From: an archaeon
GTDB taxonomy: Archaea > Undinarchaeota > CAZHTU01 > JBDRCC01
Assembly: GCA_043822065.1 (NCBI GenBank)
Contig: JBDRCC010000022.1
Coordinates: 14,189-78,188 of the forward strand
Length of the DNA stretch: 64,000 bases
Direction: 5' to 3'
Part shown: piece by piece, positions 1,378 to 25,359 of the stretch
Layout: the number at the start of each line of letters is the position of its first letter
Numbering within the stretch: the stretch's first letter is position 1
Made by a program: the position numbers and the translations under genes
The notes under the pieces: generated by a model
The model's database searches: none
What the model was told of the DNA's origin: nothing
The model's input: only the letters and a program-made list of their open reading frames with translations

Positions 1378-2085
1378 ATGAGGGTAAAGCTTATTTCGCA
1401 CACGCCAAATCCGGACATAGTATGTGCGGCGGCGGCTTACACAACGATAAAGGACAAGCCCCCAAGCGAGCTTTTCAAGGAGCTCATGAAGGACAAAAAA
1501 AGGGCTGAAAAAGTCCTCAGGAACGTCGTCGGGTACGGGCACCACTCAGTCATAGAGCACGCCTATTTCACGTTCAGCATCGAGGGCATCTCGAGGAGCT
1601 GCTCCCACCAGCTCGTGCGCCACAGGATGGCATCGTATTCCCAGCAGAGCCAGAGGTATGTCAAATTCGAGGAGATGAATTACGTCACGCCGAAGACCGT
1701 AAAGGGCGCGGTCAAGGCGAAATACGACAAAAAGATGGGAGAGATTGCTGACTTCTACCGCGAGATGCTTGACGCAGGGATACCTGCAGAGGACGCAAGG
1801 TTCGTATTTCCAAACGCAGCGCACACGAACATAGTCGTGACAATGAATGCAAGGTCGCTAATGAACTTCTTTGGCATAAGGTGCTGCTACAACGCGCAGT
1901 GGGAGATAAAGGGGCTCGCTGACAAAATGCTGGTTGAGGCCAGGAAGGTTGCCCCGGTAATATTCGAGAAAGCCGGGCCGCGCTGCCTGCATTACGGCTA
2001 CTGCCCCGAAGGGGCAAGGACTTGCGGCAGGATTACCGAGGTGAGGGGAGAATATGAAAGAGGCGCTAAGGGAAAAGGTAAGTGA
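1378..2085 (+). CDS. thyX: Flavin-dependent thymidylate synthase
   Basis: GHHSVIEH, SRSCSHQLVRHRMASYSQQSQRY and EDARFVFP motifs. Confidence 0.97.
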   Translation: MRVKLISHTPNPDIVCAAAAYTTIKDKPPSELFKELMKDKKRAEKVLRNVVGYGHHSVIEHAYFTFSIEGISRSCSHQLVRHRMASYSQQSQRYVKFEEMNYVTPKTVKGAVKAKYDKKMGEIADFYREMLDAGIPAEDARFVFPNAAHTNIVVTMNARSLMNFFGIRCCYNAQWEIKGLADKMLVEARKVAPVIFEKAGPRCLHYGYCPEGARTCGRITEVRGEYERGAKGKGK

Positions 2086-2605
2086 AAGCAACAGGGGCGC
2101 CAGTGACCTTGTAATGAAGAGCCTCAAGATTGCTGAGGCGGTAATGTGCCTTCCAGAGTACGAGGAGGCAGACATGATACTGTTTTATGTATCGCAGGGC
2201 GACGAGGTAAGGACGCACGGGCTGATTAAGGACTCGCTTTATATCGGCAAGGGGGTCGCCGTGCCAGTAAGCAACACCCAGACTGGCGAAATCGAGGTTT
2301 ATGAGATAAAGGACTTCTCCGAGCTTGTCCCAGGCGCCTACGGCATCCTTGAACCGGCGCCAAAGTTCAGGAGGCATATAGATAGCGCAGAGATAGACCT
2401 TGTAGTAGTCCCGGGCGTTGCCTTCGACGAAAACGGGAACCGGCTGGGGCGCGGCAAGGGCTATTACGACAAGTTCCTTGCAAAGCTCCCAAAGACGGTG
2501 CCAAGAATCGCCCTCGCTTACGAACACCAGATTGTGGGCGAGGTGCCTGCGGAAGGGCACGACGCCAAGGTGGACAAGATTATCACGGAAACGCGGGTTA
2601 TTTAG
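2054..2605 (+). CDS. 5-formyltetrahydrofolate cyclo-ligase
   Basis: YGILEP, IDLVVVPGVAFD..GNRLGRGKGYYD and HD..VDKIITE motifs. Confidence 0.95.
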   Translation: MKEALREKVSESNRGASDLVMKSLKIAEAVMCLPEYEEADMILFYVSQGDEVRTHGLIKDSLYIGKGVAVPVSNTQTGEIEVYEIKDFSELVPGAYGILEPAPKFRRHIDSAEIDLVVVPGVAFDENGNRLGRGKGYYDKFLAKLPKTVPRIALAYEHQIVGEVPAEGHDAKVDKIITETRVI

Positions 2606-2730
2606 GCGCCTTTTGCGTTTTTGCCTGGTTCGGGCATTTATCTGTTGCCTACCCAGGTCAATGGAGTACTTGACTCGTTGCAGAGGGAGTGGTTTTGCGT
2701 GAAAGAGTGAGTGAGGCATCCGATAATAGA

Positions 2731-2745
2731 AAAAATCATTTAAAG
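2731..2745 (+). promoter_or_regulatory. Putative BRE/TATA promoter of glyA-gcv operon
   Basis: AAAAATCATTTAAAG about 33 nt upstream of ATG 2778. Confidence 0.45.
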
Positions 2746-2777
2746 AGGTAACATATTAGTATCCGCAAGGGGTTTTG

Positions 2778-4031
2778 ATGGGAATCAGGGACAAGCTTCA
2801 GAAAGTAGACCAGCGAGTCTACGATTTGATTAAGAAAGAGGAGAAACGGCAGGAGTACGGGCTCGAGCTGATTCCCTCTGAGAATTATCCTTCCGTCGCT
2901 GTTATGGAGGCGGAAAAGAGCATTATGATGGACAAGTACGCTGAGGGCTACCCAGGCAAGAGGTATTACGGCGGGTGCGCAGTTATTGACGAGGTTGAGA
3001 GCCTGTGCATAGAAAGGGCGTGCAAGCTGATGAAAATGGACCACGCCAACGTCCAGAGCCAGACAGGGAGCATGGCGAACTTCCAGGTATTCCTTAGCAT
3101 GCTTAATTTCGGGGACACCTACCTGTCGATGGACCTGAGCCACGGGGGGCATTTGTCCCACGGGAGCCCGGTTAATTTCTCAGGCAAGTTCTACAATGTG
3201 ATTCCATATCACGTCAAGAGGGAAACTGGAAAAATTGATTACGAGGAGCTCGAGAGGCTGGCAAAGAAGCACAAGCCCAAGCTCATTCTGGCTGGGGCGT
3301 CGGCATATCCTGGAAAGTTCGATTTCAAGAGGTTCAGGGAGATTGCTGACCTGGTTGACGCCTGCCTGCTGGCTGACATTGCGCATTTCGCAGGGCTTAT
3401 AGTCTCCGGCGACCACCCGCACCCGGCGAAGCACTGCGATTTCATAACGAGCACGAGCCAGAAGACCTTGAGGGGCCCGAGGGGCGGGCTAATCTGGTGC
3501 AAAGGTGAGTATGCAAAGCAGATTGACAAGACAGTCTTCCCGATGACGCAGGGCGGACCGTACGAGCACGTGATTGCTGCGAAGGCTGTCTGCTTCAAGG
3601 AGGCGCTCACCTCGGCATTCAAGAAGTACGGGCACCAGATTGCGAAGAACGCCAAGGCGCTGTCCAGCGAGCTGATGAGGCTCGGCTGGAAGCTTTGCAT
3701 GGACGGAACGGAAAACCACCTTATGCTCATGAACATGATTGAGTACCCTGCAAAGGGCAAGGAAGTTCAGGAGCTGCTGGACTCTATCGGGCTGTGCGTG
3801 AACAAGCAGATGATACCTTTCGACCCGGAAAAGCCGTTCACCCCGAGCGGGGTGCGGCTTGGAACGCCCGCAGCTACGACAAGGGGAATGAGGGAGCGGG
3901 AGATGAAAAAGATTGCCGGCTTCATTGACAGGGCTATCAGGAACAGGGAAAACAAGAAAGAGATTTCCAAGATAAAAGGCGAGGTCAGGGGGCTTTGCAC
4001 TAAGTTCCCAATTTACAGGGTGCGAAAATGA
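2778..4031 (+). CDS. glyA: Serine hydroxymethyltransferase (bacterial/THF type)
   Basis: LELIPSENY, KYAEGYPGKRYYGG, GGHLSHG and KTLRGPRGG motifs. Confidence 0.97.
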   Translation: MGIRDKLQKVDQRVYDLIKKEEKRQEYGLELIPSENYPSVAVMEAEKSIMMDKYAEGYPGKRYYGGCAVIDEVESLCIERACKLMKMDHANVQSQTGSMANFQVFLSMLNFGDTYLSMDLSHGGHLSHGSPVNFSGKFYNVIPYHVKRETGKIDYEELERLAKKHKPKLILAGASAYPGKFDFKRFREIADLVDACLLADIAHFAGLIVSGDHPHPAKHCDFITSTSQKTLRGPRGGLIWCKGEYAKQIDKTVFPMTQGGPYEHVIAAKAVCFKEALTSAFKKYGHQIAKNAKALSSELMRLGWKLCMDGTENHLMLMNMIEYPAKGKEVQELLDSIGLCVNKQMIPFDPEKPFTPSGVRLGTPAATTRGMREREMKKIAGFIDRAIRNRENKKEISKIKGEVRGLCTKFPIYRVRK

Positions 4032-4324
4032 GGATTAAGAACGACTACAAAGTCGCAGGGGGGAAGCTCGTAAGGGTTGAAGGCGAATCAGCAGGAGAAA
4101 GGATACAGAGCATAAGGATAACTGGGGACTTTTTTATGTTCCCGGAAGATGGGATTGAGAAGATTGAGAATGGGCTTTCCGACTGCGCACTTGAGAAGGG
4201 CATGATAGCCAAGAAAACCGCTGATGTAATCGCTAAGAACAAGATACAAGTCCAGGGGTTCACGCCGGAGGACTTGGCGGAGGCAATCGTCGGCGGGGTT
4301 CAAAATGAAACGGCTTCACCTTGA
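4028..4324 (+). CDS. Lipoate-protein ligase C-terminal accessory subunit (LplB-like)
   Basis: KVAGGKLVRV...I.ITGDFFMFPEDGIEKIE.L motif; located in gcv operon. Confidence 0.85.
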   Translation: MRIKNDYKVAGGKLVRVEGESAGERIQSIRITGDFFMFPEDGIEKIENGLSDCALEKGMIAKKTADVIAKNKIQVQGFTPEDLAEAIVGGVQNETASP

Positions 4325-5426
4325 GGAATGGCACAACCAGCATGCAAGGATGGGTGAGTTCGCCGGCTGGCACACGCCGATATGGTATACGAGCATAAAT
4401 GACGAGCACATGACGGTTAGGGAAAAGGCAGGGGTGTTCGACATCTCGCACATGGGCGAATTCTATTTTGAGGGGAAGGACGCAGAGGCGTTTCTTGACA
4501 AAGTATGCGTAAGCGACATCGCAGGGCTGACGGCTGATGTTTCAAAGTACACATGCATACTGAACGACAACGGCGGCATAATGGACGAGGCAGTTATCTA
4601 CAGGATAGACGCGACCCACTTCAAGATGGTGTGCGACGCAGTCTGCTATGACAAGCTCAAGGGCTGGTTTGCAAAGGTCAGGGAAGGGATGGAGCTAAAT
4701 GTGATTGACAAGACGGAGGACCTTGTCCTTCTCGCGATACAGGGGCCGGACGCGTATTCAGTGTCTGACAAGATGGGGATTGCGGCGAGGGAGATGCCGA
4801 GGTTCGGGTTCAGGCATATAGCTTACAAAGGCAGGGAAGTCCTGCTATCAAATTCAGGGTACACTGGGGAGAATGGCTTCGAGCTGTTGTTTGATGATAA
4901 GAAGCCAGTACACCCTGACCCGAAGAAGGTCGGCGAGCCGACGTTTGCGCTTCAGGTATGGAATGACCTACTGTCGGCTGGCGCAAAGCCGGTCGGGCTT
5001 GGCTGCAGGGACAGCCTGAGGATTGAGTGCGGATTCACTTTGTACGAGCATGAGGACACTGAGGAAGTCAACCCCCTTGAGGTTAACTTCAACTGGATGA
5101 TAAAATGGGATAAGGATTTCATAGGCAAGGAAGCGCTGGTTAATGCGAAGGCTGCAGGAATAAAAAGGAAAATGAAGGGATTTGAGATGGCTGACCGCGC
5201 GATACCCAGGCAAGGGTATGATGTAATGCAGAATGGAAAAAAGGTCGGGGTTGTCACGAGCGGGACGATGCCGCCGACATCTGGGAAGGGCATAGGGCTC
5301 GGGCTTTTCGACTCGGCAGTCGAGGGGGACGTCGACATCATGATCCGTGGAAAGGAAACAAAAGCTAAAATAGTAAAGCCGCCTTTCTACGACAAGCAAA
5401 AGTACGGAATGAAACGAGAGGCTTAG
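4305..5426 (+). CDS. gcvT: Glycine cleavage aminomethyltransferase T
   Basis: FAGW, FDISHMG, LAIQGP, SGYTGENGFE and GLGCRDSLRIE motifs. Confidence 0.97.
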   Translation: MKRLHLEEWHNQHARMGEFAGWHTPIWYTSINDEHMTVREKAGVFDISHMGEFYFEGKDAEAFLDKVCVSDIAGLTADVSKYTCILNDNGGIMDEAVIYRIDATHFKMVCDAVCYDKLKGWFAKVREGMELNVIDKTEDLVLLAIQGPDAYSVSDKMGIAAREMPRFGFRHIAYKGREVLLSNSGYTGENGFELLFDDKKPVHPDPKKVGEPTFALQVWNDLLSAGAKPVGLGCRDSLRIECGFTLYEHEDTEEVNPLEVNFNWMIKWDKDFIGKEALVNAKAAGIKRKMKGFEMADRAIPRQGYDVMQNGKKVGVVTSGTMPPTSGKGIGLGLFDSAVEGDVDIMIRGKETKAKIVKPPFYDKQKYGMKREA

Positions 5427-5456
5427 AAAAGTATAATGGTCGGTAAGGAAAAGGTA

Positions 5457-5527
5457 TCGGAACCTACGAATCTGCAAGATTCGTACGAACGTACAAGCGA
5501 AGCTTGTAGTAAACGTAGTTTTTCTGA
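5457..5527. repeat. Palindromic double-hairpin element between gcvT and gcvH, flanked by a duplicated gcvT 3' end
   Basis: TACGAATCT-GCA-AGATTCGTA (5465-5485) and TACAAGC-GAA-GCTTGTA (5492-5508); TACGGAATGAAA at 5403 and 5529. Confidence 0.75.
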
Positions 5528-5554
5528 TTACGGAATGAAAAGGGAGGTTTAAGA

Positions 5555-5959
5555 ATGCAGGTAGGTGACTACAACATAAAGGAAGGTTTGTACTACCTTG
5601 ACTCGCACGAGTGGGTTGAGATTAAGGGGAATACTGCGACAATAGGCCTGAGCGACTACGCACAGAAGTCGCTTGGTGATGTTGCATACATCGACGTGCC
5701 GCAGGTTGGCAAGGAAGTGAGCCAGAAGGCTGAGCTTTGCGAAATTGAGTCGGTCAAGGCTGTTGACCATGTCTATTCGCCGCTGTCCGGAAAGGTTGTA
5801 GGGGCGAACAGCGAGCTAACGAATTCGCCGGATAAGATAAACAGCGACCCGTACGGTGCGTGGATTGTGAAGATTGAAATTAAGGACGAAAGCGAAAAGG
5901 CGAACCTGAAGGACGCCAACGCGTATGCTGAGTTCGTCAAGGGGCTTGCTGCAAAATAA
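5555..5959 (+). CDS. gcvH: Glycine cleavage H protein
   Basis: HEWV, GLSDYAQKSLGDV and ESVKAV (lipoyl-Lys) motifs, YSPLSG, DPYGAW. Confidence 0.97.
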   Translation: MQVGDYNIKEGLYYLDSHEWVEIKGNTATIGLSDYAQKSLGDVAYIDVPQVGKEVSQKAELCEIESVKAVDHVYSPLSGKVVGANSELTNSPDKINSDPYGAWIVKIEIKDESEKANLKDANAYAEFVKGLAAK

Positions 5960-5961
5960 TC

Positions 5962-7287
5962 ATGCGGTATATTCCAAACCTTTCAAGAAAGGACGAACTG
6001 CTGAAAGAGGCAGGGCTGAAAAGGGAGGACCTTTTCGGCGACGTCCCGAAGGACTGCAGGACGGCTGGGCTCAACCTCCCTGAGCCGCTGCCGGAGCTTG
6101 AGGTCAGGCGGAAGGTTATAGGGATTCTTTCCAAGAACAAAGTTCCGAGGGCAAGCTTCCTCGGCGGCGGGGTCAGGAACCACTTTGTGCCGGAGCACGT
6201 AAGGCATTTGGCAGGCAGGTCGGAGTTTTACACTGCGTACACGCCGTACCAGCCGGAGATTTCTCAGGGGATGCTCCAGACACTGTTCGAATACCAGTCA
6301 ATGGTTGCGGAGCTGACCGGGCTGGAAGCCGTCAACTCATCCATGTATGACTTTTCCACCGCACTTGCTGAGGCTGCATTGATGGCAAAGAGGGCGACCA
6401 GCAGGAGCGAATTCTTGGTTCCAAAGCTAATGTCGCCAAAGAGGAAGGCCGTGCTGAGGACGTACGTTCAGGGCGCAGGAATGAGCCTAATCGAAATTGA
6501 AGCCCAGAAGAATGGCCAGCTTGATTTGGAGGACCTGAAGAAAAAAGTCTCTGACAGGACGGCGGGCGTTTACGTTGAAAACCCGGCATACTTAGGGTAT
6601 TTTGAAGAGGGAGTTGAGGAAGTTTCTGATATAATCCACAAGGCAGGCGGTTTGTTTGTCGTGGGCGCAGACCTGATATCGCTCGGAATCGCAAAGGCGC
6701 CGGGGGACTACGGCGCAGACATAGTCATCGGAGAGGGGCAGCTGCTTGGGAACCCGCCCTCCTACGGCGGGCCGTACGTAGGCGCGTTCGCCGTCAGGGC
6801 AGACCAGGGCCTCGTGAGGAAAATGCCAGGCAGGATAATCGGGATGACGGAAGACGCGGACAAGAACCGCGGGTTCGTGATGACTCTCCAGACAAGGGAG
6901 CAGCACATAAGGCGGGAGAGCGCGACATCGAACATCTGCTCGAACGAGGCGCTGTGCGCGGTGACCGCGGCGATATACCTCGCCACGCTTGGGCGAAATG
7001 GGCTGAGAGAAGTTGCAGAGGCGTGCGCGAAGAATGCGAATTATGTTATGCGGGAGATTGGTAAGCTGGATGGGTTTGAGGCACCAGTGTATGATTCAAA
7101 GCACTTCTGCGAGTTCACAGTGAAGTGCCCCAAGGACGTTGACGGGATAAACCGCAAGCTGATGGAAAATGGGATTCATGGCGGGTCTAAGGTCGAGTTC
7201 CTAAAGGATACTGCACTGTACGCGGTGACCGAAGCCCACACGAAGAAGGACGTCGATGAGCTGCTGGAGGGGCTGAAGAATGTATAA
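5962..7287 (+). CDS. gcvPA: Glycine dehydrogenase subunit 1
   Basis: FYTAYTPYQPEISQG and TLQTREQHIRRE.ATSNICSN motifs. Confidence 0.97.
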   Translation: MRYIPNLSRKDELLKEAGLKREDLFGDVPKDCRTAGLNLPEPLPELEVRRKVIGILSKNKVPRASFLGGGVRNHFVPEHVRHLAGRSEFYTAYTPYQPEISQGMLQTLFEYQSMVAELTGLEAVNSSMYDFSTALAEAALMAKRATSRSEFLVPKLMSPKRKAVLRTYVQGAGMSLIEIEAQKNGQLDLEDLKKKVSDRTAGVYVENPAYLGYFEEGVEEVSDIIHKAGGLFVVGADLISLGIAKAPGDYGADIVIGEGQLLGNPPSYGGPYVGAFAVRADQGLVRKMPGRIIGMTEDADKNRGFVMTLQTREQHIRRESATSNICSNEALCAVTAAIYLATLGRNGLREVAEACAKNANYVMREIGKLDGFEAPVYDSKHFCEFTVKCPKDVDGINRKLMENGIHGGSKVEFLKDTALYAVTEAHTKKDVDELLEGLKNV

Positions 7288-8734
7288 GCAGGCACACGGC
7301 GACAGCAGGCTTATATTCGAGAAGTCGGACTCTTCGACAGGGTACTCCCTGCCAAAGCCATTCGGGACGGAATTTAGCATTCCCGAAAAGCTGAAGCGGA
7401 AGGAACTGAACCTCCCTGAGGTCAGCGAAGTCGAGGTCGTCAGGCATTACACTAATTTGTCCCAGCGGAACTTCGGGGTAGACAATGGGTTTTACCCGCT
7501 TGGGAGCTGCACCATGAAGTACAACCCGAAGATTAACGAGGCGATGGCTGGGCACGAGCTTGTTGTGGATATGCACCCGGAGCAACTGGAGGAAACTGCG
7601 CAGGGCTGCCTTGAGCTGGCGTATAATCTTGGCGAAGTCCTGAAAGAAGTAAGCGGAATGGACGCAGTAAGCCTCCAGCCGGCCGCCGGCGCGCACGGCG
7701 AGTATATAGGATGCATGATAATCCGCGCCTGCCACAAGGGCAAGGGGCAGGACAGGAATGAGATAATCGTCCCGGATTCGGCGCACGGGACAAATCCGGC
7801 GTCGGCGGCGATGGCTGGGTTCAAAGTGGTCCAGGTGCCTTCGCTTGAGGACGGGACAGTTGACATAGAAGCGCTGAAGGCGGCGGTGTCTGGCAGAACT
7901 GCCGGGCTCATGCTAACCAACCCGAACACCCTTGGAATATTCGAGCACAACATCAAAGAGATTGCGAGGATTGTGCACGGGGCGGGCGGGCTGTTGTATT
8001 ATGATGGGGCAAACTTAAACGCGATAATGGGCTTCTGCAAGCCAGGCGAGATGGGGTTTGACGTCATGCACATAAACCTGCACAAGACCTTTGCCACACC
8101 GCACGGCGGCGGCGGGCCTGGAAGCGGCCCGGTGCTTGTGAAAAAGGAACTGGCAAAATTCCTGCCAGTGCCAGTTGTTGAGAAAACGGGCAGCAAGTTC
8201 AGGCTGAATTATAACCTGCCGGAGTCGATTGGGCCTTCAAAGTCTTCGATAGGGAATTTTGGTGTGCTGGTCAAGGCGTACACTTACACGCTGACGATGG
8301 GGAAGATGCTCAAGGACGCCTCAGAGATTGCCGTCCTGAACTCGAACTACATGGCGCAGAAGCTGAAGCAGGACTATGAGATGCCGGGGAAGGAAATCCG
8401 AAAGCACGAGTTTGTGCTGTCAGCGGAGAAAATAAAAACCGAAACTGGCTGTTCGGCGCTGGACATCGGAAAACGGCTTTTGGACTACGGGCTGCATGCC
8501 CCGACGATTTATTTCCCCCTGATTGTCCACGAGGCGCTGATGATTGAGCCGACTGAGACGGAAGCCAAGGAAAATCTTGATAGGTATATTGACGCCCTGA
8601 AAAAAATAAAGGAAGAGGCGTACAAGAGCCCTGACCTTCTGCACGGGGCGCCGGCAAACACCTCGGTCAGGCGGCTGGATGTTACCAAGGCGATAAGGGA
8701 GCCTGTCCTCAGCTGGAAGATGGTTAAGAAGTAA
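7280..8734 (+). CDS. gcvPB: Glycine dehydrogenase subunit 2
   Basis: YPLGSCTMKYNP, SAHGTNPAS and NLHKTFATPHGGGGPG motifs. Confidence 0.97.
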   Translation: MYKQAHGDSRLIFEKSDSSTGYSLPKPFGTEFSIPEKLKRKELNLPEVSEVEVVRHYTNLSQRNFGVDNGFYPLGSCTMKYNPKINEAMAGHELVVDMHPEQLEETAQGCLELAYNLGEVLKEVSGMDAVSLQPAAGAHGEYIGCMIIRACHKGKGQDRNEIIVPDSAHGTNPASAAMAGFKVVQVPSLEDGTVDIEALKAAVSGRTAGLMLTNPNTLGIFEHNIKEIARIVHGAGGLLYYDGANLNAIMGFCKPGEMGFDVMHINLHKTFATPHGGGGPGSGPVLVKKELAKFLPVPVVEKTGSKFRLNYNLPESIGPSKSSIGNFGVLVKAYTYTLTMGKMLKDASEIAVLNSNYMAQKLKQDYEMPGKEIRKHEFVLSAEKIKTETGCSALDIGKRLLDYGLHAPTIYFPLIVHEALMIEPTETEAKENLDRYIDALKKIKEEAYKSPDLLHGAPANTSVRRLDVTKAIREPVLSWKMVKK

Positions 8735-9888: not shown

Positions 9889-9924
9889 TAATATATAGTC
9901 GGAGGGATTTGTACTAATACTCCC

Positions 9925-13031: not shown

Positions 13032-13032
13032 T

Positions 13033-17792: not shown

Positions 17793-17842
17793 GTCGATAT
17801 TATGGGCGCAAAGCAATTAAAAGTTGTCGGATTAGCAGTAGC

Positions 17843-18964
17843 ATGCTCGCGGGGTTCATAGTAAATCCCATAGCCGGGATGGGTGGAAAAGTAGGCTTAA
17901 AAGGCACCGACGGCCAGGTCAGGAGGGCGCTAGAACTTGGGGCAAAAATGGTAGCGCCGGAGCACGCAAGGGAGTTTCTTGGCGCGCTGAAGAAGGACAT
18001 AGAATTTATCACCTGCCCTGGCGAAATGGGCGAGGATTACCTAAGGGGCTCGAGGTTCGGCTTTGAGGTTGCAGGCAAAAAAAAGCTCCAGCATGGCGAG
18101 GATGGCATGCCGAAAACGACTGCCGCAGACACTAAGAGGATGGCAAAAAGGATTCTCGAGGAAAAGCCGCACATAATCGTCTTTGTTGGCGGGGACGGGA
18201 CTGCAAGAGATGTATACTCGGCAGTCAAGGACAACATCCCCATTCTTGGAGTCCCTTCCGGTGTCAAGGTCTACTCCTCCGTCTTCGGAGGATCACCAGA
18301 TGAGTCAGCTGCGCTCTTAGATATGTTTGCGGACGGGGCAGTGCCTGCAAAAGCCTGCGAAGTCCTCGACATTGATGAAGCAAAATACAGAAAGGGCATT
18401 CTAGACACAAAGCTGGTGGGCTACGCAAAAGTGCCGTACTACGAGTCGCTGATACCTGGCGGCAAATCAGCGAGCACGATTTCAGAGGAGGAGGAGCACG
18501 AGGCGATTGCGAAGAGGATAGCTTACGAGATTGATGCGGGACTGTACCTGTTCGGGCCTGGGACGACGGTAGCCGAATGCTCGAAGATGCTCGGGCTAAA
18601 GCACACCCTCTTAGGGGTTGACATAGTGGAAGTCGACAGGCAGAGGAAACCGTGCGTGCTGAAGCTTGACGCAAACGAGAGGGACATTCTCGCGGAGATG
18701 AAAAGGCACGGGAACAGGGTGAAGGTAATCGTCTCCCCCATCGGAAAGCAGGGGTTCATCTTTGGCAGGGGGAACCAGCAGATTTCAGAAAACGTGCTGA
18801 AATACGTTTCCAAGGAGGACGTCCTGGTTGTCGCGACGCAGAACAAGCTGAACGAGGTCAAATTCTTGAGGGTCGACGTCAACCCAGAGATAAATTCAAG
18901 GTTCCAGGGATACATGAAGGTCATTGTCAGCTACAGTGACAGCAAAATACAAAAGGTAGTCTGA
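17843..18964 (+). CDS. ATP-NAD kinase / AcoX-like family protein
   Basis: VNPIAGMGGKVGLKGTDG, VGGDGTARD, PSGVKVYS and QGFIFGRGNQQIS motifs. Confidence 0.88.
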   Translation: MLAGFIVNPIAGMGGKVGLKGTDGQVRRALELGAKMVAPEHAREFLGALKKDIEFITCPGEMGEDYLRGSRFGFEVAGKKKLQHGEDGMPKTTAADTKRMAKRILEEKPHIIVFVGGDGTARDVYSAVKDNIPILGVPSGVKVYSSVFGGSPDESAALLDMFADGAVPAKACEVLDIDEAKYRKGILDTKLVGYAKVPYYESLIPGGKSASTISEEEEHEAIAKRIAYEIDAGLYLFGPGTTVAECSKMLGLKHTLLGVDIVEVDRQRKPCVLKLDANERDILAEMKRHGNRVKVIVSPIGKQGFIFGRGNQQISENVLKYVSKEDVLVVATQNKLNEVKFLRVDVNPEINSRFQGYMKVIVSYSDSKIQKVV

Positions 18965-18978
18965 CATCAGGATAAAAT

Positions 18979-20286
18979 ATGAAAGCCGTAGTAATCGGGG
19001 CTGGGGTTGCAGGGACGACTGCCGCGCTTGAACTTAAAAAGCTGGACCGGCGGTCAGAAGTGGTCCTGCTTGAAGCAACCAAATACCCGGAATACTCCCA
19101 CTGCGGAATGCCGTTTTCCCTTGAGGGCATGTTCCCGCCCGAGAGCCTTATCTCCCACCCGGCAGAGTTCTATAAACGTGCAGGGATAGACCTCCGGCTG
19201 AATGCAAAAGTCAAAAAAATAAAGCCGAAGGAGCGGAAAGTAATTCTTGAGGGCAAAGAAGAGGGTTATGACTACCTAATAATTGCCACTGGCGGAAAGG
19301 CGTTTGTCCCGCCAATTGAGGGAATTGACAAGGAAGGGGTAGCCGGCCTCAACGTAATGGACGAGCTCAAGGAGCTCTTGCGGCTTTCTAAGAAATCAAA
19401 GAGGGCGGTCGTCATAGGCGCCGGCCTCATCGGGCTTGAGACTGCAGTTGCGCTGGAGAGCCTTGGCATTGAAGTGACCGTCGTAGAGATGTTGAACCAG
19501 ATCATCCCGATAATCGACAAGGACATGGCAGAGTATGCCCAGCGCCACATGGAATCCAGAGGAGTAGAATTCAAGCTCGAGAAAAAAGTAGAGCGCATAC
19601 TCGGCAAGGGCAATGTTGAGGGCGTCATGGTTTCTGGGGAGAAAATTGGCTGTGACCTTGTCGTCCTTGCGACAGGCACGCTGGCGAACTCCGGCCTGGC
19701 GAAGGACGCAGGGCTTAAGGCTGGCCCGTTCGGAATAGAGGTTGACGAGTACCTGCGAACAAGCGATGAGAGGATATACGCCATCGGGGACAGTATCCAG
19801 GTAAAAGACTTTTTTTGCAGGAAGTCGTCGGCTGCGCGGCTGAGCAGCATTGCGCTTATCCAGGGAAGAGTCGCCGCGGCAAACATCGCCGGCAGAAAAA
19901 AGAGGTTCGACGGCGGGCTCAACTCCACTGTGACAAAGCTCTTCGACCTGGAAGTGGGGCGGGTTGGGCTTGATTCGAACCTGGCTGGATGCCTTGGGGT
20001 TGAGGTGCAGAGCTCAAAATTCAAGGGCGCATCCAGGATTGAGTATTACCCTGATAAAAAGGACGTGGTTGTAAAGATAATATTCGACAAAAGAGGGAAA
20101 GTGCTTGGGTTCCAGTCGGTCGGGCCGGACTCGTTTGGAAGGGTTGCGGCGCTGGCAATCGGCATACAAAAGGGTGTGACGCTTGAGGACCTGACAAAAG
20201 TGGAGTTCCCCTTCGCCCCGCCAATTTCGCCGGCAATCGAGCCTATCCACGTCGCCGCCGAGCTCGGGCTCAGGAGGCTGAAATGA
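18979..20286 (+). CDS. NADH oxidase / CoA-disulfide reductase family flavoprotein
   Basis: GAGVAG, single redox Cys in YSHCGMPF, GAGLIGLE, IYAIGD and FAPPIS motifs. Confidence 0.9.
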   Translation: MKAVVIGAGVAGTTAALELKKLDRRSEVVLLEATKYPEYSHCGMPFSLEGMFPPESLISHPAEFYKRAGIDLRLNAKVKKIKPKERKVILEGKEEGYDYLIIATGGKAFVPPIEGIDKEGVAGLNVMDELKELLRLSKKSKRAVVIGAGLIGLETAVALESLGIEVTVVEMLNQIIPIIDKDMAEYAQRHMESRGVEFKLEKKVERILGKGNVEGVMVSGEKIGCDLVVLATGTLANSGLAKDAGLKAGPFGIEVDEYLRTSDERIYAIGDSIQVKDFFCRKSSAARLSSIALIQGRVAAANIAGRKKRFDGGLNSTVTKLFDLEVGRVGLDSNLAGCLGVEVQSSKFKGASRIEYYPDKKDVVVKIIFDKRGKVLGFQSVGPDSFGRVAALAIGIQKGVTLEDLTKVEFPFAPPISPAIEPIHVAAELGLRRLK

Positions 20287-21128
20287 CTGCAAAGCTGATG
20301 GATGGGAAGGCGGCTGCGCAGGAGGTAGTCGACGCGCTGAAAAAGGAGGTATCCAGCTTCACTAAAAAGCCAGGGCTTGCGCTTATTCTCGTCGGAGACG
20401 ACCCGGCGTCGAAGATTTATACTGCCAGCAAGGAGAAGCGCTGTGCAGAGATAGGCATCAGGTCGGAGATGAACCGCCTGCCGGAGAAGACGAGCCAGAG
20501 GGAGCTCATTTCGCTGATTGAGAAGCTGAACAAAGACAACAGCATCCACGGGATAATCGTCCAGCTTCCCCTGCCAAAGCACCTTGACCCGGCCGAAGCT
20601 GCAGCCAAGATAAGCCAGGACAAGGATGTCGACGGGATTTCCCCTGCAAATATGGGGCGGCTTTTGAGGGGGGAAGACTGCCTTGTGCCGTGCACCCCGC
20701 AGGGCATAATGTACCTGCTGAAAAAGTATGGGGTTGAGATAAACGGCAAACGGGCGTCAATCGTCGGGAGGTCAAACATCGTAGGCAAACCGGTTTCAGT
20801 CCTTCTGCTCAACGAGCACGCAACAGTAACCATATGCCATTCGAGGACGGCAGACCTTTGCGCAGAGACAAAAAAGGCTGACATCCTCGTCGCCGCGGTT
20901 GGGAAAGCAAGGATGATTAAGGCAGACATGGTCAAGAAAGGGGCGGCAGTCATCGACGTCGGCATGAACCGGACCGCAGACGGCCTCGCGGGTGATGTGG
21001 ATTTTGACTCAGTGAGCAAAATCGCAGGCTGGATAACGCCAGTGCCGGGCGGGGTGGGCTTGATGACTGTTGCTATGCTCATGAAAAACACGGTTGAAGC
21101 CTACAAGAGGCTGGAGGGCTTGAAATGA
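20283..21128 (+). CDS. folD: Methylene-THF dehydrogenase/cyclohydrolase
   Basis: IVQLPLP, KDVDG, PCTPQG, GRSNIVGKP and TPVPGGVG motifs. Confidence 0.97.
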   Translation: MTAKLMDGKAAAQEVVDALKKEVSSFTKKPGLALILVGDDPASKIYTASKEKRCAEIGIRSEMNRLPEKTSQRELISLIEKLNKDNSIHGIIVQLPLPKHLDPAEAAAKISQDKDVDGISPANMGRLLRGEDCLVPCTPQGIMYLLKKYGVEINGKRASIVGRSNIVGKPVSVLLLNEHATVTICHSRTADLCAETKKADILVAAVGKARMIKADMVKKGAAVIDVGMNRTADGLAGDVDFDSVSKIAGWITPVPGGVGLMTVAMLMKNTVEAYKRLEGLK

Positions 21129-21739
21129 CAAACATTGCAGTTCTTGTTTCCGGCCGCGGCTCAAACCTGCAGGCGCTGATTGACCGGGCTGAGTCGGGAT
21201 ACATCCCTGGCAAAATCACAGTCGTCATTTCCAACAAGAAAGATGCCTACGGGCTCGAGAGGGCGCGAAAGCATGGAATCCCAGCGGAGTATGTCCATAT
21301 GGAACCAGGCGAAGCGCGCGAGGAATATGACAAAAAAATAATTACGGTTCTTGAAAAATACAAGGTGGACCTCGTGTGCCTCGCAGGCTACATGTTCATT
21401 GTCAGCCCGCAATTCGTCAAGAGATACAAGTACTGCATGATGAATGTCCACCCGGCTTTGCTTCCGGCATTTGCAGGCGGGACGCACGCCCAGAAAGAGG
21501 CGATTGACTGGGGCGTCAAGGTCGCAGGATGCACGGTCCATTTCGTCACAGACGAGGTTGACGGAGGGCCGATAATAGTCCAAAAGACGGTCCCTGTGCT
21601 TGAGAACGATAATATTGAAACGATCTCAAGAAGGATTCTCAGGCAGGAGCACAGGGCGTATTCGGAAGCAGTCAGGCTCTTCTGCGAGGGGAGACTCAAA
21701 GTGGAGGGCAGAAAAGTGAAGGTGCTCCCTGAGAAATGA
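21125..21739 (+). CDS. purN: Phosphoribosylglycinamide formyltransferase
   Basis: SGRGSNLQA, LAGYM, NVHPALLP and GCTVHFV..EVDGGPII motifs. Confidence 0.97.
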   Translation: MTNIAVLVSGRGSNLQALIDRAESGYIPGKITVVISNKKDAYGLERARKHGIPAEYVHMEPGEAREEYDKKIITVLEKYKVDLVCLAGYMFIVSPQFVKRYKYCMMNVHPALLPAFAGGTHAQKEAIDWGVKVAGCTVHFVTDEVDGGPIIVQKTVPVLENDNIETISRRILRQEHRAYSEAVRLFCEGRLKVEGRKVKVLPEK

Positions 21740-21767
21740 TTTAAAATGGAGGGGGATTAGTTTGGCT

Positions 21768-22493
21768 ATGAAACCTAAGATGTTAGACGCTCTAAAGCTG
21801 GAGCCGGCGGAAAAGCTGACTGTACTGATTGGGCTTTTTATTGCATCGCTTGTTGCTGCAAACCTCCTTGGAAACAAGATAAGCGTCCTTGCCGGGATAA
21901 GCGTCTCAGTCGGCATATTCGCGTACCCGATAACGTTCCTTATTGCGAACATATTCGGGGAAGTTGACGGGCCAAGAATCCCCAGAATGCTTGTTGTAAG
22001 CGGCATCGTCTCGATAATTGCAGTTTTGGTGCTCACGTCAGTCTCGATTGCCCTGCCGCCAGCGGCGCGGTTCACCTACAACGACGCATACGTGCAGGTG
22101 TTTTCCTCGACCCGCAGGATAATGGTCGGGAGCCTCGTAGCATTTGCATTCGCGCAGATGCTCAACATCCGGCTCTTCGACGCGCTCAAGGGGCGCCTAT
22201 CCGGCAAGCATGCATGGCTTAGGTACAACGCAGCAGTCACAACGAGCCAGTTTTTCGACACTGCAGTATTCTACTTCATTGCGTTCTACAAATTGACGCC
22301 AACGTTCACGGGGCCATTCGTTATTTCACTCATATTCCCCTACTGGTTCATGAAGTGCGCCTTCTCGCTCCTCAGCACGCCGGTTTTCTACGGCGGCGTG
22401 AAATGGTTCAAGAAAGGCGCAAAGCCAGGGCTTCCGCCCATGGCAATCCCAGTTTCGGCGCCTCAGCCTGCGGCCCACAGGAAAAAAAGGTAA
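21768..22493 (+). CDS. YhhQ/VUT family (preQ0/preQ1 precursor) transporter
   Basis: ANLLGNK, YPITFLIANIFGEV.G, GSL.AF..AQ and WLR......SQFFDT motifs; multiple TMs. Confidence 0.85.
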   Translation: MKPKMLDALKLEPAEKLTVLIGLFIASLVAANLLGNKISVLAGISVSVGIFAYPITFLIANIFGEVDGPRIPRMLVVSGIVSIIAVLVLTSVSIALPPAARFTYNDAYVQVFSSTRRIMVGSLVAFAFAQMLNIRLFDALKGRLSGKHAWLRYNAAVTTSQFFDTAVFYFIAFYKLTPTFTGPFVISLIFPYWFMKCAFSLLSTPVFYGGVKWFKKGAKPGLPPMAIPVSAPQPAAHRKKR

Positions 22494-22829
22494 TCAGCCG
22501 AGGAGCTTTTCAATCCGCGCTGCGAACTCAGGGCACCCATGGACATTGTTGCGGAGGCTCCCGACTGCGCGGCGGTACTGGGCTACCGTTCCCAGGAGGA
22601 GGACATCCGTCTGCTTGACTTTGCAGGTCACAGTCCCGGCTGCGACTGCAGCGTCTCCGCCGGCAGAAAGCATTGTCTGCTTCAATATGTTTGCGGACCC
22701 AGCTGGAACTTTTTCAATCAGAATAAGCCGGAATTTTGCCTTTGGGAGCATTATTTCAATGCCCTCCCTCTGGCTTCCGAGGTCCCGCATCGCCTTTTCA
22801 GCATCGATTTCAGGTATCCGCCTGTCCAT
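22494..22829 (-). CDS. Stand-alone domain resembling the N-terminal extension of some dihydropteroate synthases
   Basis: ANILKQTMLSAGGDAAV...TDVLLLGT pattern; immediately downstream of folC. Confidence 0.65.
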   Translation of the reverse strand: MDRRIPEIDAEKAMRDLGSQREGIEIMLPKAKFRLILIEKVPAGSANILKQTMLSAGGDAAVAAGTVTCKVKQTDVLLLGTVAQYRRAVGSLRNNVHGCPEFAARIEKLLG

Positions 22830-22849
22830 GCTCTGAGAACCCCTGCTGC

Positions 22850-24097
22850 TTATTTAGGAGTTTCGAAGGAAACCACTTTACGCCACCTCTGCCGCGCCTC
22901 GCCGGCAAGGAAAATTGAGCCGGTTATTACAACTATTGAATCTGAATCTGCCTCCTTGAGGGCAGAGTCGACTGCCTTGCTGAGCGGTGTGCGTATTGCA
23001 AAGTTTCCGCTTGCGTAACTAACCATTTTTTCTGGGTCTGCAGACCTCGGCTTCGAATATTTGGTCAAGATTATTTTTGAGGCGGATTTGGATATCCGTC
23101 CGAGCATGGCGCGTATGTCCTTGTCCTTTGATGCACCAAAGACAAATATTTTTCTTTTTCTGATTGAGTCGAGTGTGCTGCAGAGCGCGTCTACGCCGGC
23201 AGGGTTGTGGTCGGCGGACAGAATGACAATCGGGCGTGTTTGCATGACCTCGAACCGCCCCGGCCAAAAGGAGTTAGAAATTCCTCTGACAATATGCTCC
23301 TGTTTTATTCCAAGCACCTCTGCTGCAGAAACTGCAACCGCTGCATTTTTCCTCTGGAAGCCGCCAAGCATCTTTGTCTCGAGGCTGTAGCCGTTTATCC
23401 TGAAAGCCTGGCGTTTGAAGTCTGAAGAGATTGGAGCTATCCCGCGGCTCGACGCCCGGATTAGCCTGCAGTTCTTCACCTTGCACACGTTGGAAAGGTA
23501 CTGGACGACCTCCTGCTTGTCAGAGCCGGTAACGAGCACCTTGCCCTGCCGGATTATGCCTGCCTTCTCCTTTGCTATTTCTAGAACCGTGCTGCCAAGT
23601 ACCTTCGTGTGGTCTAAGTCGACGTTAGTTATTATCGACAGCTCAGGCTCTGCGACATTGGTCGCATCATATCTTCCGCCAAGACCAACTTCTATAACAG
23701 CGTAATCAACGTTCTTTTCTAAGAAGTACAGAAAAGCCGCGGCAGTTAAGACTTCAAAGTGGGTTGCGCCGTATTTTTCCTGAAGCGGCCTGATTCTCGA
23801 AATGAGCCGCGCAAGGTCCCGCCCGGGTATCTTAGTTTTGTCAACGAGGATGCGCTCGCGGTCGTCACTCAGAGGAGGGGAGGTGTATGTCCCCACCTTT
23901 AGTCCGGATTCCAAGAGGATAGAGCTTAGCATCATCGAGACTGAACCCTTGCCGTTTGTGCCGCCAACTATCACGGTCTTGCATTTGAGCTGGGGGCTGC
24001 CAAGCTCCGCGCATATTTGTCGGATTCGCCCGAGCCCGAGGTGGGAGCCGAACTGCTCAAGCCCCTCAAGGTATGCTTTAGTCTCAGCGAGATTCAT
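22850..24097 (-). CDS. folC: Folylpolyglutamate synthase / dihydrofolate synthase
   Basis: GTNGKGS, YTSP, EVGLGGRYDATN, DH...LG and WPGRFE motifs. Confidence 0.95.
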   Translation of the reverse strand: MNLAETKAYLEGLEQFGSHLGLGRIRQICAELGSPQLKCKTVIVGGTNGKGSVSMMLSSILLESGLKVGTYTSPPLSDDRERILVDKTKIPGRDLARLISRIRPLQEKYGATHFEVLTAAAFLYFLEKNVDYAVIEVGLGGRYDATNVAEPELSIITNVDLDHTKVLGSTVLEIAKEKAGIIRQGKVLVTGSDKQEVVQYLSNVCKVKNCRLIRASSRGIAPISSDFKRQAFRINGYSLETKMLGGFQRKNAAVAVSAAEVLGIKQEHIVRGISNSFWPGRFEVMQTRPIVILSADHNPAGVDALCSTLDSIRKRKIFVFGASKDKDIRAMLGRISKSASKIILTKYSKPRSADPEKMVSYASGNFAIRTPLSKAVDSALKEADSDSIVVITGSIFLAGEARQRWRKVVSFETPK

Positions 24098-24205
24098 TAA
24101 AACCCCAAAATCAAGCCTCCGAACGCCCCGCGATTTAAATTAGTTGCCTTTTTCAAAAAAGAAACATTTATATCCAGTTCTGCAAATATCTTAGTGGTGG
24201 TGCAC

Positions 24206-24430
24206 ATGACGGAAGTATCGTGCCCAGATTGTCAAAACAAAATTAAGATAGACAAAGAACTGTCTGAAGAGCCAACGGACATCTCCTGCCCAGAGTGCCT
24301 TTCAGACCTTAGGGTTACCAAGAACGGAGACGACGTTACCGTCCGCTCGATAGAGGAGGCTGAGCTCCTCGGCGTAGTAAAGAAAGACGAAAGCAAGTAC
24401 TCAGATTCTGCGTTCGGCCAGTATGACTAA
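24206..24430 (+). CDS. LysW-like zinc-ribbon small protein
   Basis: CPDC..CPEC.S.L.V pattern, acidic tail; GGTGGTG SD before ATG 24206. Confidence 0.65.
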   Translation: MTEVSCPDCQNKIKIDKELSEEPTDISCPECLSDLRVTKNGDDVTVRSIEEAELLGVVKKDESKYSDSAFGQYD

Positions 24431-25359
24431 ATCCCGTGCTTGAATGCGCGTATGCCTGTGAATGCAAGGGCTATGCCCTTCAGGTCTGCGGCTTTTATGA
24501 CTTCCTCGTCCCGCTTAGAGCCACCCGGCTCGATTGCCGCAGTCACCCCGATTTTTGCGGCTTCGCCGATGCTGTCTGCAAACGGGAAGAACCCGTCTGA
24601 CGCGAGGACTGGGTGTTTTACGCCTTTTTCCTTGGCTTTCTGGATTGTTATCCTGACTGAGTCCACGCGGTTCGGCTGTCCGGTGCCTATTCCGACAGTC
24701 ACCTGATCCTTTGCCAGGACGATGCCGTTCGACTTGACGTGTTTGACCACTTTCCAGGCAAAGAGCAGGTCCTCGAACTGGGCCGCGGTCGGCTTTTTTG
24801 CCGTGACTATTTTCAGCCCAGCCTTTGTGACTTTTTTCGTATCGTGCTGCTGGACAAGGTAGAATTTCCCAACCTTGACAACGTCAGGCTGCCTGAAGTC
24901 AAGAAGAGAAGTCTTTACGACCCGGAGGTCGGGCTTCGTCCGGAGGACTTTGAGCGCGTCTGGCGAGTAGGATGGGGCTATGATGACTTCTTTGAAGGAT
25001 TTCACAATCTCTTTTGCGGTCTTTTGGTCAACCTGCCGGTTTGCCGCGACAATGCCGCCGAATGCAGAGATGGGATCCGCCTCAAGGGCGCGCTTGTATG
25101 CGGTTGATATGTCCTTCGCAACAGCAACCCCGCATGGCAGCTGGTGCTTTATTATTGCAACAGCCGGCTTGGAGAATTCATAGACGAGCTCCTCGGCACA
25201 GGCTGCGTCGAAGATGTTGTTGTAGGAGAGCTCCTTGCCCTGGTACTGCTTTATTTTGCCGCCGGAGGAATAGACTGCAGCAGGCTGGTGCGGGTTCTCG
25301 CCGTAGCGTGGAGTCATGACTTTTTTCAGCTTCAGCTTGAATTCGCGCGGAAATGCCAT
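24427..25359 (-). CDS. purH: AICAR formyltransferase (PurH C-terminal domain only)
   Basis: RYGENPHQ, GKELSYNN, SAFGGIVA, KHVKSN and ASDGFFPFAD motifs; IMP cyclohydrolase domain absent. Confidence 0.92.
   Translation of the reverse strand: MAFPREFKLKLKKVMTPRYGENPHQPAAVYSSGGKIKQYQGKELSYNNIFDAACAEELVYEFSKPAVAIIKHQLPCGVAVAKDISTAYKRALEADPISAFGGIVAANRQVDQKTAKEIVKSFKEVIIAPSYSPDALKVLRTKPDLRVVKTSLLDFRQPDVVKVGKFYLVQQHDTKKVTKAGLKIVTAKKPTAAQFEDLLFAWKVVKHVKSNGIVLAKDQVTVGIGTGQPNRVDSVRITIQKAKEKGVKHPVLASDGFFPFADSIGEAAKIGVTAAIEPGGSKRDEEVIKAADLKGIALAFTGIRAFKHGI

Follow-up and report, generated by a model that had tools for sequence, protein, structure and literature searches.

How far does a stretch of archaeal DNA in which genes for folate use, glycine cleavage and lipoylation lie close together form one self-contained pathway unit, and what part do the poorly understood genes between them play? 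The question is raised by a window of 64,000 nucleotides (positions 14,189 to 78,188 of contig JBDRCC010000022.1, GenBank assembly GCA_043822065.1; all coordinates below count from the first letter of this stretch), in which a first-pass annotation had described a single supercluster of about 24 kb devoted to tetrahydrofolate (THF), one-carbon (C1) units and the glycine cleavage system (GCS). Judging from gene content and gene order, we consider it likely that the region is a lineage-specific enlargement of a folate-utilisation neighbourhood whose conservation extends across a phylum of Undinarchaeota-like DPANN archaea with small genomes.

All window frames were scanned against Pfam and NCBIfam, and scores are given in bits, against the curated cut-off of the model where this is quoted. 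The 15 named genes of folate metabolism, glycine cleavage and lipoylation are all present within about 24 kb, as intact frames which match their family models. Two further genes, left unnamed by the first-pass annotation, lie between lipA and folD: one encodes an AcoX-type, NAD-kinase-like (NADK-like) protein and the other a flavoprotein similar to CoA-disulfide reductase (CoADR) and NADH oxidase (Nox). The genes are the following:

1378-2085 (+): thyX, flavin-dependent thymidylate synthase (PF02511, 231; TIGR02170, 192 against 87.9; RHRMAS, the RHRxxS motif, at 81-86)
2054-2605 (+): 5-formyltetrahydrofolate cyclo-ligase, 5-FCL (TIGR02727, 154.5 against 84.9)
2775-4031 (+): glyA, serine hydroxymethyltransferase (PF00464, 494; NF000586, 561.8 against 335)
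4028-4324 (+): lplB, small subunit of a split lipoate-protein ligase (NF053749, 68.6 against 65; 4-nt overlap with the glyA stop)
4305-5426 (+): gcvT, aminomethyltransferase (TIGR00528, 292.1 against 235.85)
5555-5959 (+): gcvH, lipoyl carrier protein (TIGR00527, 130.4 against 115.85; lipoyl-lysine motif ESVKA at 65-69)
5962-7287 (+): gcvPA, P-protein subunit 1 (NF001696, 555.8 against 364)
7280-8734 (+): gcvPB, P-protein subunit 2 (NF003346, 727.4 against 441)
16178-17068 (-): lplA, catalytic subunit of the split lipoate-protein ligase (PF21948, LplA-B_cat, 175.8 against 27)
16914-17816 (-): lipA, lipoyl synthase (TIGR00510, 336.7 against 310.25; CX4CX5C at 41-52 and CX3CX2C at 67-74)
17843-18964 (+): AcoX-type NADK-like protein, 373 aa (PF01513, 74.2 against 25.5; PF20143, 50.4 against 23.7; GGDGT motif)
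18979-20286 (+): CoADR/Nox-type single-cysteine flavoprotein disulfide reductase (PF07992, PF00070 and PF02852, the FAD, NAD(P) and dimerisation domains)
20283-21128 (+): folD, methylene-THF dehydrogenase/methenyl-THF cyclohydrolase (PF00763 and PF02882; NF010783, 351.3 against 333)
21125-21739 (+): purN, GAR formyltransferase (TIGR00639, 242.6 against 150.1; 4-nt overlap with folD)
21762-22493 (+): yhhQ, YhhQ/Vut_1 (COG1738) membrane transporter (PF02592, 122.6; TIGR00697, 127.4 against 50.95; five hydrophobic segments)
22850-24097 (-): folC, folylpolyglutamate synthase (TIGR01499, 336 against 162.65)
24427-25401 (-): purH, AICAR formyltransferase (AICARFT) domain only (PF01808, 308.7; NF002049, 402.4 against 402)

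The supercluster stands as far as gene content is concerned, but not as a single array, since the genes fall into two co-directional blocks (1378-8734 and 16178-25401), with other genes filling the roughly 7.4 kb between them. The first block, from thyX through gcvPB, is a single (+)-strand array in which several genes overlap and no gap exceeds 170 nt. In the second, lipA and then lplA, on the (-) strand, diverge from the NADK-like gene, the flavoprotein gene, folD, purN and yhhQ, all on the (+) strand with successive spacings of 14, -4, -4 and 22 nt, and purH and then folC, again on (-), converge upon the folD-purN-yhhQ array. When every window protein was compared by tblastn with the complete assembly (1,026,769 bases in 22 contigs), no second copies of the folate, glycine cleavage or lipoylation genes came up, so that all these single-copy members are confined to 24 of 1,027 kb, which is not a matter of chance.

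Some of the frames call for comment. The set of split lipoate ligase and lipoyl synthase is complete (LplA, LplB, and LipA with both cluster motifs); under NF053750, an NCBIfam exception model, LplA scores 256.3 and falls short of the 480 required. Judging from the frames, the true start of lplA is probably Met43, near 16942, and that of lipA the ATG near 17793. The spacer of about 50 nt between this probable lipA start and the ATG of the NADK-like gene (17794-17842) holds a single AT-rich box, AATTAAAAG, at 17817-17825, which could serve both divergent genes as a shared element. The purH frame, 324 aa long, matches only positions 199-510 of NF002049 and 64-311 of PF01808, and the IMP cyclohydrolase domain of a bifunctional PurH (AICARFT/IMPCH) is not in it; five to six relatives carry 508-535-aa frames for AICARFT. 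An Rfam scan of positions 1-30000 (E <= 0.1) found no riboswitch and no other RNA family.

The evidence that this arrangement has been built upon an older one comes from the surroundings of folD, a gene detected in 12 of the remaining 16 genomes of our phylum sample (17 species genomes, this one, G000, included) and in 8 of 24 further archaeal genomes. The resulting 20 loci, taken as the 5-20 kb around each copy, were searched with all window proteins. Further folate genes lie near folD in 10 of the 12 phylum loci and in six of the eight other small archaeal loci. Among the phylum loci, 5-FCL-glyA-folD recurs in four, glyA-folD-purH-P-type ATPase, or looser forms with a gene for a phosphatase of the HAD family, in five, and purN-folC-yhhQ...folD...thyX in one; the six archaeal loci outside the phylum show glyA-folD, folD-purN, folD-5-FCL or folD-folC. 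The view that these genes are usually scattered in archaea therefore does not hold for the folate core, which is already clustered in these 16 loci. On the other hand, gcv, lipA, lplA/B, NADK-like and CoADR-like flavoprotein genes occur in none of the 20 loci, so that the synteny search upholds the linkage of the folate core and not that of the supercluster as a whole. The folate neighbourhoods of other Undinarchaeota and small archaea resemble the present one in their genes, their order and their tight glyA-folD or folD-purN junctions; they differ in that glyA and folD, closely spaced in the relatives, are here about 16 kb apart.

From this comparison, the predicted ancestral core is 5-FCL, glyA, folD, purH, purN, folC, yhhQ and thyX, with the HAD phosphatase and the P-type ATPase (both described below) as passengers. 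The predicted additions of this lineage are lplB-gcvT-gcvH-gcvPA-gcvPB directly behind glyA, and lipA-lplA, the NADK-like gene and the flavoprotein gene directly before folD; gene order places both insertions at what is the glyA-folD junction of the relatives. The distribution of the added genes within the phylum is narrow: GcvPB is found in one of the 17 genomes, the NADK-like gene in the same one, GcvH over cut-off in two, LipA over cut-off in seven, and a CoADR-like flavoprotein in two, the second copy being only 32% identical. The nearest GcvPB homologs are from Undinarchaeota (84% identity) and then from Thermococcus, Theionarchaea and Methanomicrobia metagenome-assembled genomes (63-65%), with homologs at 65-67% also among the matches, and the nearest flavoprotein homologs outside Undinarchaeota are from Thermococcales (44-46%, named NADH oxidase). 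This pattern would be compatible with transfer from, or common ancestry with, such lineages. In four of the relatives with LipA (G004:C21, G013:C25, G015:C7 and G007:C31) we observed, 2-4 kb from it, frames with weak lipoyl-domain matches (417-444 aa; 99 aa in G013), and other Undinarchaeota may lipoylate an E2-like protein, likewise with no recognisable E3 (no Lpd over cut-off in G004).

Blocks present in a single one of 17 genomes, with Thermococcales-like nearest relatives outside the phylum, are also what an assembly or binning artefact would leave if the gcv and lipoylation genes were foreign DNA joined to an Undinarchaeota contig. We consider this extremely improbable, because the blocks lie between syntenic genes (glyA, the HAD gene, the P-type ATPase gene and folD) on a contig of 78 kb that also carries housekeeping genes of archaeal type, the G+C content is steady throughout the window (0.48-0.57), the estimated contamination of the genome is 0.05%, and a separate Undinarchaeota record has GcvPB at 84% and the NADK-like protein at 74% identity. 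The remainder of the window encodes the exosome, the proteasome alpha subunit, L15e, Spt5, FtsZ together with SepF, and a Hel308-type helicase. 'Candidatus Undinarchaeota archaeon' is the closest named homolog for three window proteins (the two just mentioned and the flavoprotein, at 47%), which suggests an Undinarchaeota-like (DPANN) archaeon with a small genome as the host, a placement that rests on homolog names. For the NADK-like protein and the flavoprotein, these Undinarchaeota homologs are both encoded on contigs with a listed length of 6,445 bp.

With functional roles taken from the established enzymology of the families, the genes would form a coherent route. GlyA and the glycine cleavage system would charge THF with C1 units (methylene-THF), from which ThyX would make dTMP, giving back THF and not dihydrofolate, so that dihydrofolate reductase (DHFR) would be unnecessary. 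FolD would convert methylene-THF into formyl-THF, the substrate for PurN and the AICARFT-type PurH, while the purine ring would be closed by PurO, which is encoded outside the window (G000:C21:42591-43142, 5 kb from PurD on the same contig). 5-FCL would recycle 5-formyl-THF, imported folate would be retained through polyglutamylation by FolC, and GcvH, the sole GCV_H match, besides which no lipoyl protein was found in this genome, would be lipoylated by LplA/LplB and LipA. The proposal of a module turning glycine and serine into methylene- and formyl-THF for dTMP and purines is in this sense coherent in its gene content, and the lipoylation and folate polyglutamylation ascribed to it are indeed encoded within the same THF network.

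What has to be given up is the term 'self-contained': PurO is on another contig, no dihydrolipoamide dehydrogenase (Lpd) scores over cut-off, and FolP, HPPK, DHFR and MTHFR were not found. The absences were searched in five genomes (this one, two of the same order and a further two, of which one is 98% complete), and those in the present genome (Lpd, FolP, FolK, DHFR, formate-THF ligase (Fhs) and TGT) are to be read against its completeness of 82% and its 22 contigs. FolP (PF00809), HPPK/FolK (PF01288) and DHFR (PF00186) each have no match in the five genomes, non-orthologous archaeal substitutes not having been searched, and MTHFR has none in the same five. With FolP, FolK and DHFR not found, folate would have to be taken up, and the organism appears to be a folate scavenger with no recognisable folate synthesis. 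The expected contrast with the formate-dependent routes of other archaea is sustained, since in this genome Fhs gives one match of 17.8 bits against a cut-off of 27 and the PurP-type DUF1297 gives none (two each in G004 and G005); as read from these genes, purine synthesis here is folate-dependent, through PurN, the short AICARFT-type PurH and PurO.

The same enzymes could be imagined to run the other way, with the GCS acting as a glycine synthase (the reductive glycine route) that combines CO2 and ammonia with methylene-THF into glycine and serine. The reactions are reversible, as is established biochemically, the organism is apparently anaerobic, and a group-3-type [NiFe] hydrogenase encoded beside the cluster (28498-32356) could supply reductant. 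We nevertheless hold this to be very unlikely: with Fhs below cut-off and MTHFR not found, serine and glycine are the only visible entry of C1 units; PurN, PurH and ThyX consume such units; and glyA and the gcv genes are coupled in one array.

If folate has to be imported, the transporter gene of the cluster becomes of particular interest. Vut_1 scores over cut-off in 7 of the 17 phylum genomes; FolC and AICARFT occur in the same eight genomes, and Vut_1 is present in seven of these eight and in none of the nine others. It lies within 2.4 kb of folC in five of the seven genomes that carry it and directly beside it in four, the distance being 148 to 874 nt in G000, G004, G009 and G011 and 2.4 kb in G005, with the two genes on different contigs in G012 and G013. 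To our knowledge, the TGT family is the only known user of imported preQ0/preQ1. As regards salvage of queuosine or archaeosine precursors, the transporter passes TIGR00697, but no TGT-family enzyme (PF01702) was found in five genomes (G000, G004, G005, G011 and G008, four of them with Vut_1 and one 98% complete), although 14 of 14 controls match; QueC gives only short and weak N-terminal matches, and no real QueC was found. A side observation is that, with no TGT in these five genomes, archaeosine may be absent altogether from the tRNA of these archaea.

Import of folate agrees with the pairing of Vut_1 and folC and with the failure to find folate synthesis, and the Vut_1/YhhQ homolog is for us a tentative candidate for the import of folate (or folinate), a role which we rate as possible but short of even odds. 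Import of purines would lead one to expect Vut_1 in the purine-auxotrophic families f7 and f8, in which it was not found. The E. coli protein YhhQ (COG1738, QPTR) belongs to the same family model, TIGR00697, and is likewise a multi-pass membrane protein; the present case departs from queuosine-precursor transport in E. coli in that TGT and a real QueC were not found and the pairing with folC is conserved. In the accessible text of PMC5372724, the COG1738 family is described as heterogeneous, with other purines possible as cargo, and folC is not mentioned there. We know of no archaeal folate transporter, no search aimed at one having been made.

The second gap concerns the L-protein of the GCS. 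The other components are all there (a P-protein made of GcvPA and GcvPB, the T-protein, and an H-protein with its lipoyl-lysine). For the L-protein (Lpd, TIGR01350) nothing exceeds 408.8 bits in any of the five genomes, and the best match in the present one, at 138.9, is the window flavoprotein, besides which the genome has no full-length Lpd-like frame. This protein stays below both relevant cut-offs (TIGR03385 for CoADR, 325.7 against 578.8; TIGR01350, 144.1 against 408.8). Its first 70 residues contain a single cysteine, Cys42 in the sequence SHCG, and no CxxxxC redox disulfide; Cys42 aligns with the redox cysteine of a Thermococcus CoADR (34% identity) which passes TIGR03385 at 589. The stop of the gene overlaps folD by 4 nt, indicating translational coupling. 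From this position, and from the missing L-protein, one could suppose that the flavoprotein reoxidises dihydrolipoyl-GcvH in its place, a role that we regard as doubtful.

The comparison with Thermococcus is instructive here. According to the accessible text of PMC11032457, the L-protein of Thermococcus is unassigned and several genes show limited homology to it, so that the gap is real in the best-studied relative. The GCS of Thermococcus kodakarensis (T-protein TK2035, P-protein TK1380/TK1379, H-protein TK0150) also has a split LplA/LplB ligase and no identified L-protein; the two systems share a two-subunit P-protein (GcvPB 63-65% identical) and a GcvH that is apparently the sole lipoyl protein, and an AcoX-type NADK-like gene occurs in all seven Thermococcus-like genomes sampled. 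They differ in that GcvPB and the NADK-like gene are about 50 kb apart in the Thermococcus-like genomes, whereas here they share one neighbourhood with the folate enzymes; in sulfur insertion, by a classical LipA here and by LipS1/LipS2 in Thermococcus (as far as the accessible part of the source describes it); and in the host, here with a DPANN-type genome of about 1 Mb.

The third poorly understood gene is the NADK-like one. Its product matches no NCBIfam model at E <= 1e-5, and a search of PDB sequences gave 0 matches. A separate NADK-type frame of canonical size (280 aa) is found on contig C20. The family is a big one of wide distribution (8000 hits were scored, most of which bear the name 'ATP-NAD kinase family protein'), and the nearest clusters in the ESM Atlas are automatically named 'ATP-NAD/AcoX kinase'. 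In an AlphaFold model (alignment A1; mean pLDDT 89.4), residues 1-212 align to DgkB, NADK and sphingosine kinase (SphK) over 122-137 residues with Z of 9-11, and the roughly 160 C-terminal residues (213-373) have no clear structural match, the Foldseek matches being weak (TM of about 0.2).

Across 151 archaeal genomes, the NADK-like gene is present in 29 and GcvPB in 26, with both in 21, the former only in 8, the latter only in 5 and neither in 117 (odds ratio 61, Fisher p = 8e-15); counted by family, the corresponding table is 7/5/4/62 (Fisher p = 7.6e-5). The association is solid. It is also seen in gene neighbourhoods: a GCS gene accompanies the NADK-like gene in 27 of 80 loci from species genomes (hits with at least 50% query coverage and E <= 1e-8), with a gcvPA-gcvPB-like pair in 25 and gcvH or gcvT in 2 more, and in 25 of 80 metagenome loci among the matches listed (coverage of 40% or more; many of the loci span only 1.6-5 kb), which makes 52 of 160 in total. 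The best metagenome relative among the matches listed has 47% identity, and a separate search gave homologs at 52% on contigs of up to 118 kb. Two contexts can be told apart. The first is seen in 39 of 159 loci and has, within 4 kb, a divergent GcvPA/PB-like pair with 35-45% identity to that of the window; this pair stays above the NCBIfam cut-offs, although it scores lower (PB about 555-573 bits against 727 for the GcvPB of the window), and is flanked by genes for short-chain dehydrogenases (SDR; 19 of the first 80 loci have them), without gcvT and gcvH. In the second, found in 11 of 159 loci, canonical gcv genes stand beside the NADK-like gene: L175 has the full set (lplA/NADK-like/gcvH gcvT/gcvPA gcvPB, with PB 56% identical), L127 has gcvT-gcvH-NADK-like, gcvH is directly upstream in seven loci (L002, L112, L120, L141, L146, L162 and L172), and in G032 a 59%-identical gcvPB ends 24 nt before the NADK-like gene. 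The divergent module shares its kinase-like family with the window, which differs from it in having a canonical P-protein and no such SDR.

On this evidence, we would put at about an even chance that the NADK-like protein is a functional accessory of the glycine cleavage or lipoyl system. A putative counterpart is AcoX, from the first gene of bacterial acoXABC, likewise NAD-kinase-like and encoded beside a lipoyl-dependent multienzyme system, which in bacteria is acetoin dehydrogenase and here is glycine cleavage. In 2022, acoX was still called 'a protein of unknown function' in the accessible text of PMC10107126. The main text of the lipoate-assembly paper PMC10332631 does not contain the word 'kinase', and our literature searches gave no paper linking LipS1/LipS2 with NAD kinase and none linking COG3199 with NAD kinase and glycine cleavage. 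A link to LipS had been considered through a radical-SAM gene directly upstream in a Thermococcus locus and was dropped, since this protein is not recognised as a lipoyl synthase and has only a weak viperin-like match (37 bits). Other neighbours of the family include a gene of the PALP family (dependent on pyridoxal phosphate, PLP; about 464 aa) within about 4.5 kb in 9 of the first 80 loci (L009, L022, L031, L032, L049, L055, L066, L070 and L080; in four of them it ends 34-42 nt upstream) and class I/II aminotransferases in 11 of the first 80, so that, as a side observation, most of the recurrent partners of the family are PLP enzymes (GcvP, aminotransferases and PALP).

Several observations speak against the enlarged folate neighbourhood or against the roles proposed within it. 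The genes not found (Lpd, FolP, FolK, DHFR, Fhs and TGT) could sit in the missing part of the genome, and the Pfam models applied would not pick up archaeal DHFR or pterin enzymes that are non-orthologous. Two genomes of the same order (72-79% complete, in 190-200 contigs) show no folD, gcvPB, purH or Vut_1, and for this reason vertical conservation close to the present genome cannot be demonstrated. Six phylum genomes (families f7 and f8) have 5-FCL-glyA-folD without Vut_1 and FolC, so that another route of folate entry would be needed there and Vut_1 would not be the only one of the phylum; moreover, the characterised members of the YhhQ family carry preQ0/preQ1. Flavoprotein homologs (E <= 1e-60) are present in 50 of the 151 archaeal genomes, many of them without GcvPB, and often carry the name NADH oxidase; in Thermococcus-like genomes about 1 Mb separates the closest copies from the gcv genes, and the L-protein role is backed by position only, the phyletic pattern having been set aside as too broad to inform. 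For the NADK-like gene, kinship inflates both Fisher figures, as related genomes are not independent, and eight genomes carry the gene without GcvPB. Most linked loci have the divergent GcvPA/PB-like pair with SDR genes and no gcvT or gcvH, a context that may belong to a different pathway. The copy of the window itself is 9 kb from gcvPB and belongs to a seven-row clade (FastTree support 89) which includes two Thermococcus loci and lacks the pairing with the divergent GcvPA/PB genes.

These points lend some weight to a simpler account, in which ordinary clustering in a reduced genome lets the three odd genes hitch-hike with textbook jobs: the first would encode an additional NAD kinase, the next a redox-defence enzyme (NADH oxidase or CoA-disulfide reductase), and the last a transporter of preQ0 or purine bases. 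It draws on the Pfam NAD_kinase assignment and on the structural likeness of the N-terminal half to NADK, DgkB and SphK (Z of 10-11), on the names and the broad, GcvPB-independent occurrence of the flavoprotein homologs, and on the transporter passing the queuosine-precursor transporter model. Conserved neighbours also include the P-type ATPase and the HAD phosphatase, for which a connection with folate is not obvious, so that synteny alone is no proof of function here. Nevertheless, we find this account rather unlikely: the genome has an NADK frame of canonical size at another place, and the NADK-like paralog tracks GcvPB, both in the phylum and in the 151 archaeal genomes; a TGT-family user of preQ0 was found in none of the five genomes searched; Vut_1 occurs only with FolC and is absent from the purine-auxotrophic families, opposite to what a purine importer predicts; and the flavoprotein gene overlaps folD.

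Returning to the enlarged folate neighbourhood, the suggestion that its co-located genes of uncertain role may be new pathway members can be kept for the NADK-like protein, the flavoprotein and Vut_1 as candidates, and finds no support for the unnamed frames of the spacer. In the most far-reaching form of this reading, which we judge unlikely as a whole, the AcoX-type protein would be an unrecognised partner of lipoyl systems, working jointly with the adjacent flavoprotein to close the redox cycle of GcvH, for which anaerobic archaea have no identified L-protein, and YhhQ would be the first archaeal folate importer described. Such a partner would serve acetoin dehydrogenase in proteobacteria and, in archaea as well as in many anaerobic bacteria, glycine cleavage.

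Between the two blocks (9199-15997) lie a HAD hydrolase gene, a P-type ATPase gene, a methyltransferase gene and four unnamed frames, of which the first two recur in the relatives:

9199-9888 (+): HAD-family phosphatase (PF00702; TIGR02253, 144.7, below the cut-off of 169.75)
9925-12630 (+): P-type cation ATPase (family matches; a 45% identical paralog at 61273-63930)

Copies of the HAD phosphatase, 58-59% identical, stand between glyA and folD in G005 and G012 (loci L088 and L091). Its best specific models are of the phosphoglycolate phosphatase or PpaX types, every one below cut-off. Removal of 2-phosphoglycolate leads to glycine in Thermococcus, according to the accessible text of PMC11032457, and the window protein could be a candidate 2-phosphoglycolate phosphatase supplying the same module. 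A homolog of the P-type ATPase lies at most 10 kb from folD in 5 of the 12 phylum loci, and we take this gene to be probably a syntenic neighbour and not a pathway member. The spacer frames 12627-13031, 14234-15010, 15049-15738 and 15740-15997 have no family match, the methyltransferase matches a generic MTase domain only, and no homolog of any of these was found near folD in the 20 loci. The frame 22539-23018, which overlaps folC and matches no family, is probably not a gene.

Other parts of the window deserve a brief mention. The frame at 1-1362 (+), open at the window start so that its upstream part lies outside, joins DUF359 (residues 2-97), the domain of GTP-dependent dephospho-CoA kinase, to a DHH/DHHA1 phosphoesterase (RecJ/NrnA-like), an unusual fusion which ends 15 nt before thyX. 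At 25470-27727 (+), an enzyme of the Orn/DAP/Arg-decarboxylase fold (LysA model, 310 against 297.9) is followed, with a 4-nt overlap, by agmatinase; the pair looks like a polyamine (putrescine) route and not like lysine synthesis. The hydrogenase at 28498-32356 (+) is a four-gene, cytoplasmic enzyme with sulfhydrogenase-like beta and gamma subunits and the small and large subunits. The Hel308-type helicase (46015-49542, +; 1175 aa) is split by an intein with a LAGLIDADG homing-endonuclease domain.

DPANN archaea are commonly portrayed as short of biosynthetic capacity. In the main text of the Undinarchaeota paper purine is mentioned three times, and folate, glycine and lipo- are not, nor are they in the text of its supplements (the Supplementary Discussion may be outside that text); the only match of a literature search for DPANN together with glycine cleavage and folate concerns Asgard archaea. 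The present organism would have every folate-dependent step that leads from serine and glycine to dTMP and purines, with apparently no folate synthesis of its own, which would imply dependence on a partner or on the environment for reduced folate. Furthermore, three poorly understood proteins are placed in a context which gives each of them a specific test, and since T. kodakarensis has both orthologs and genetics, the NADK-like gene would be directly testable there.

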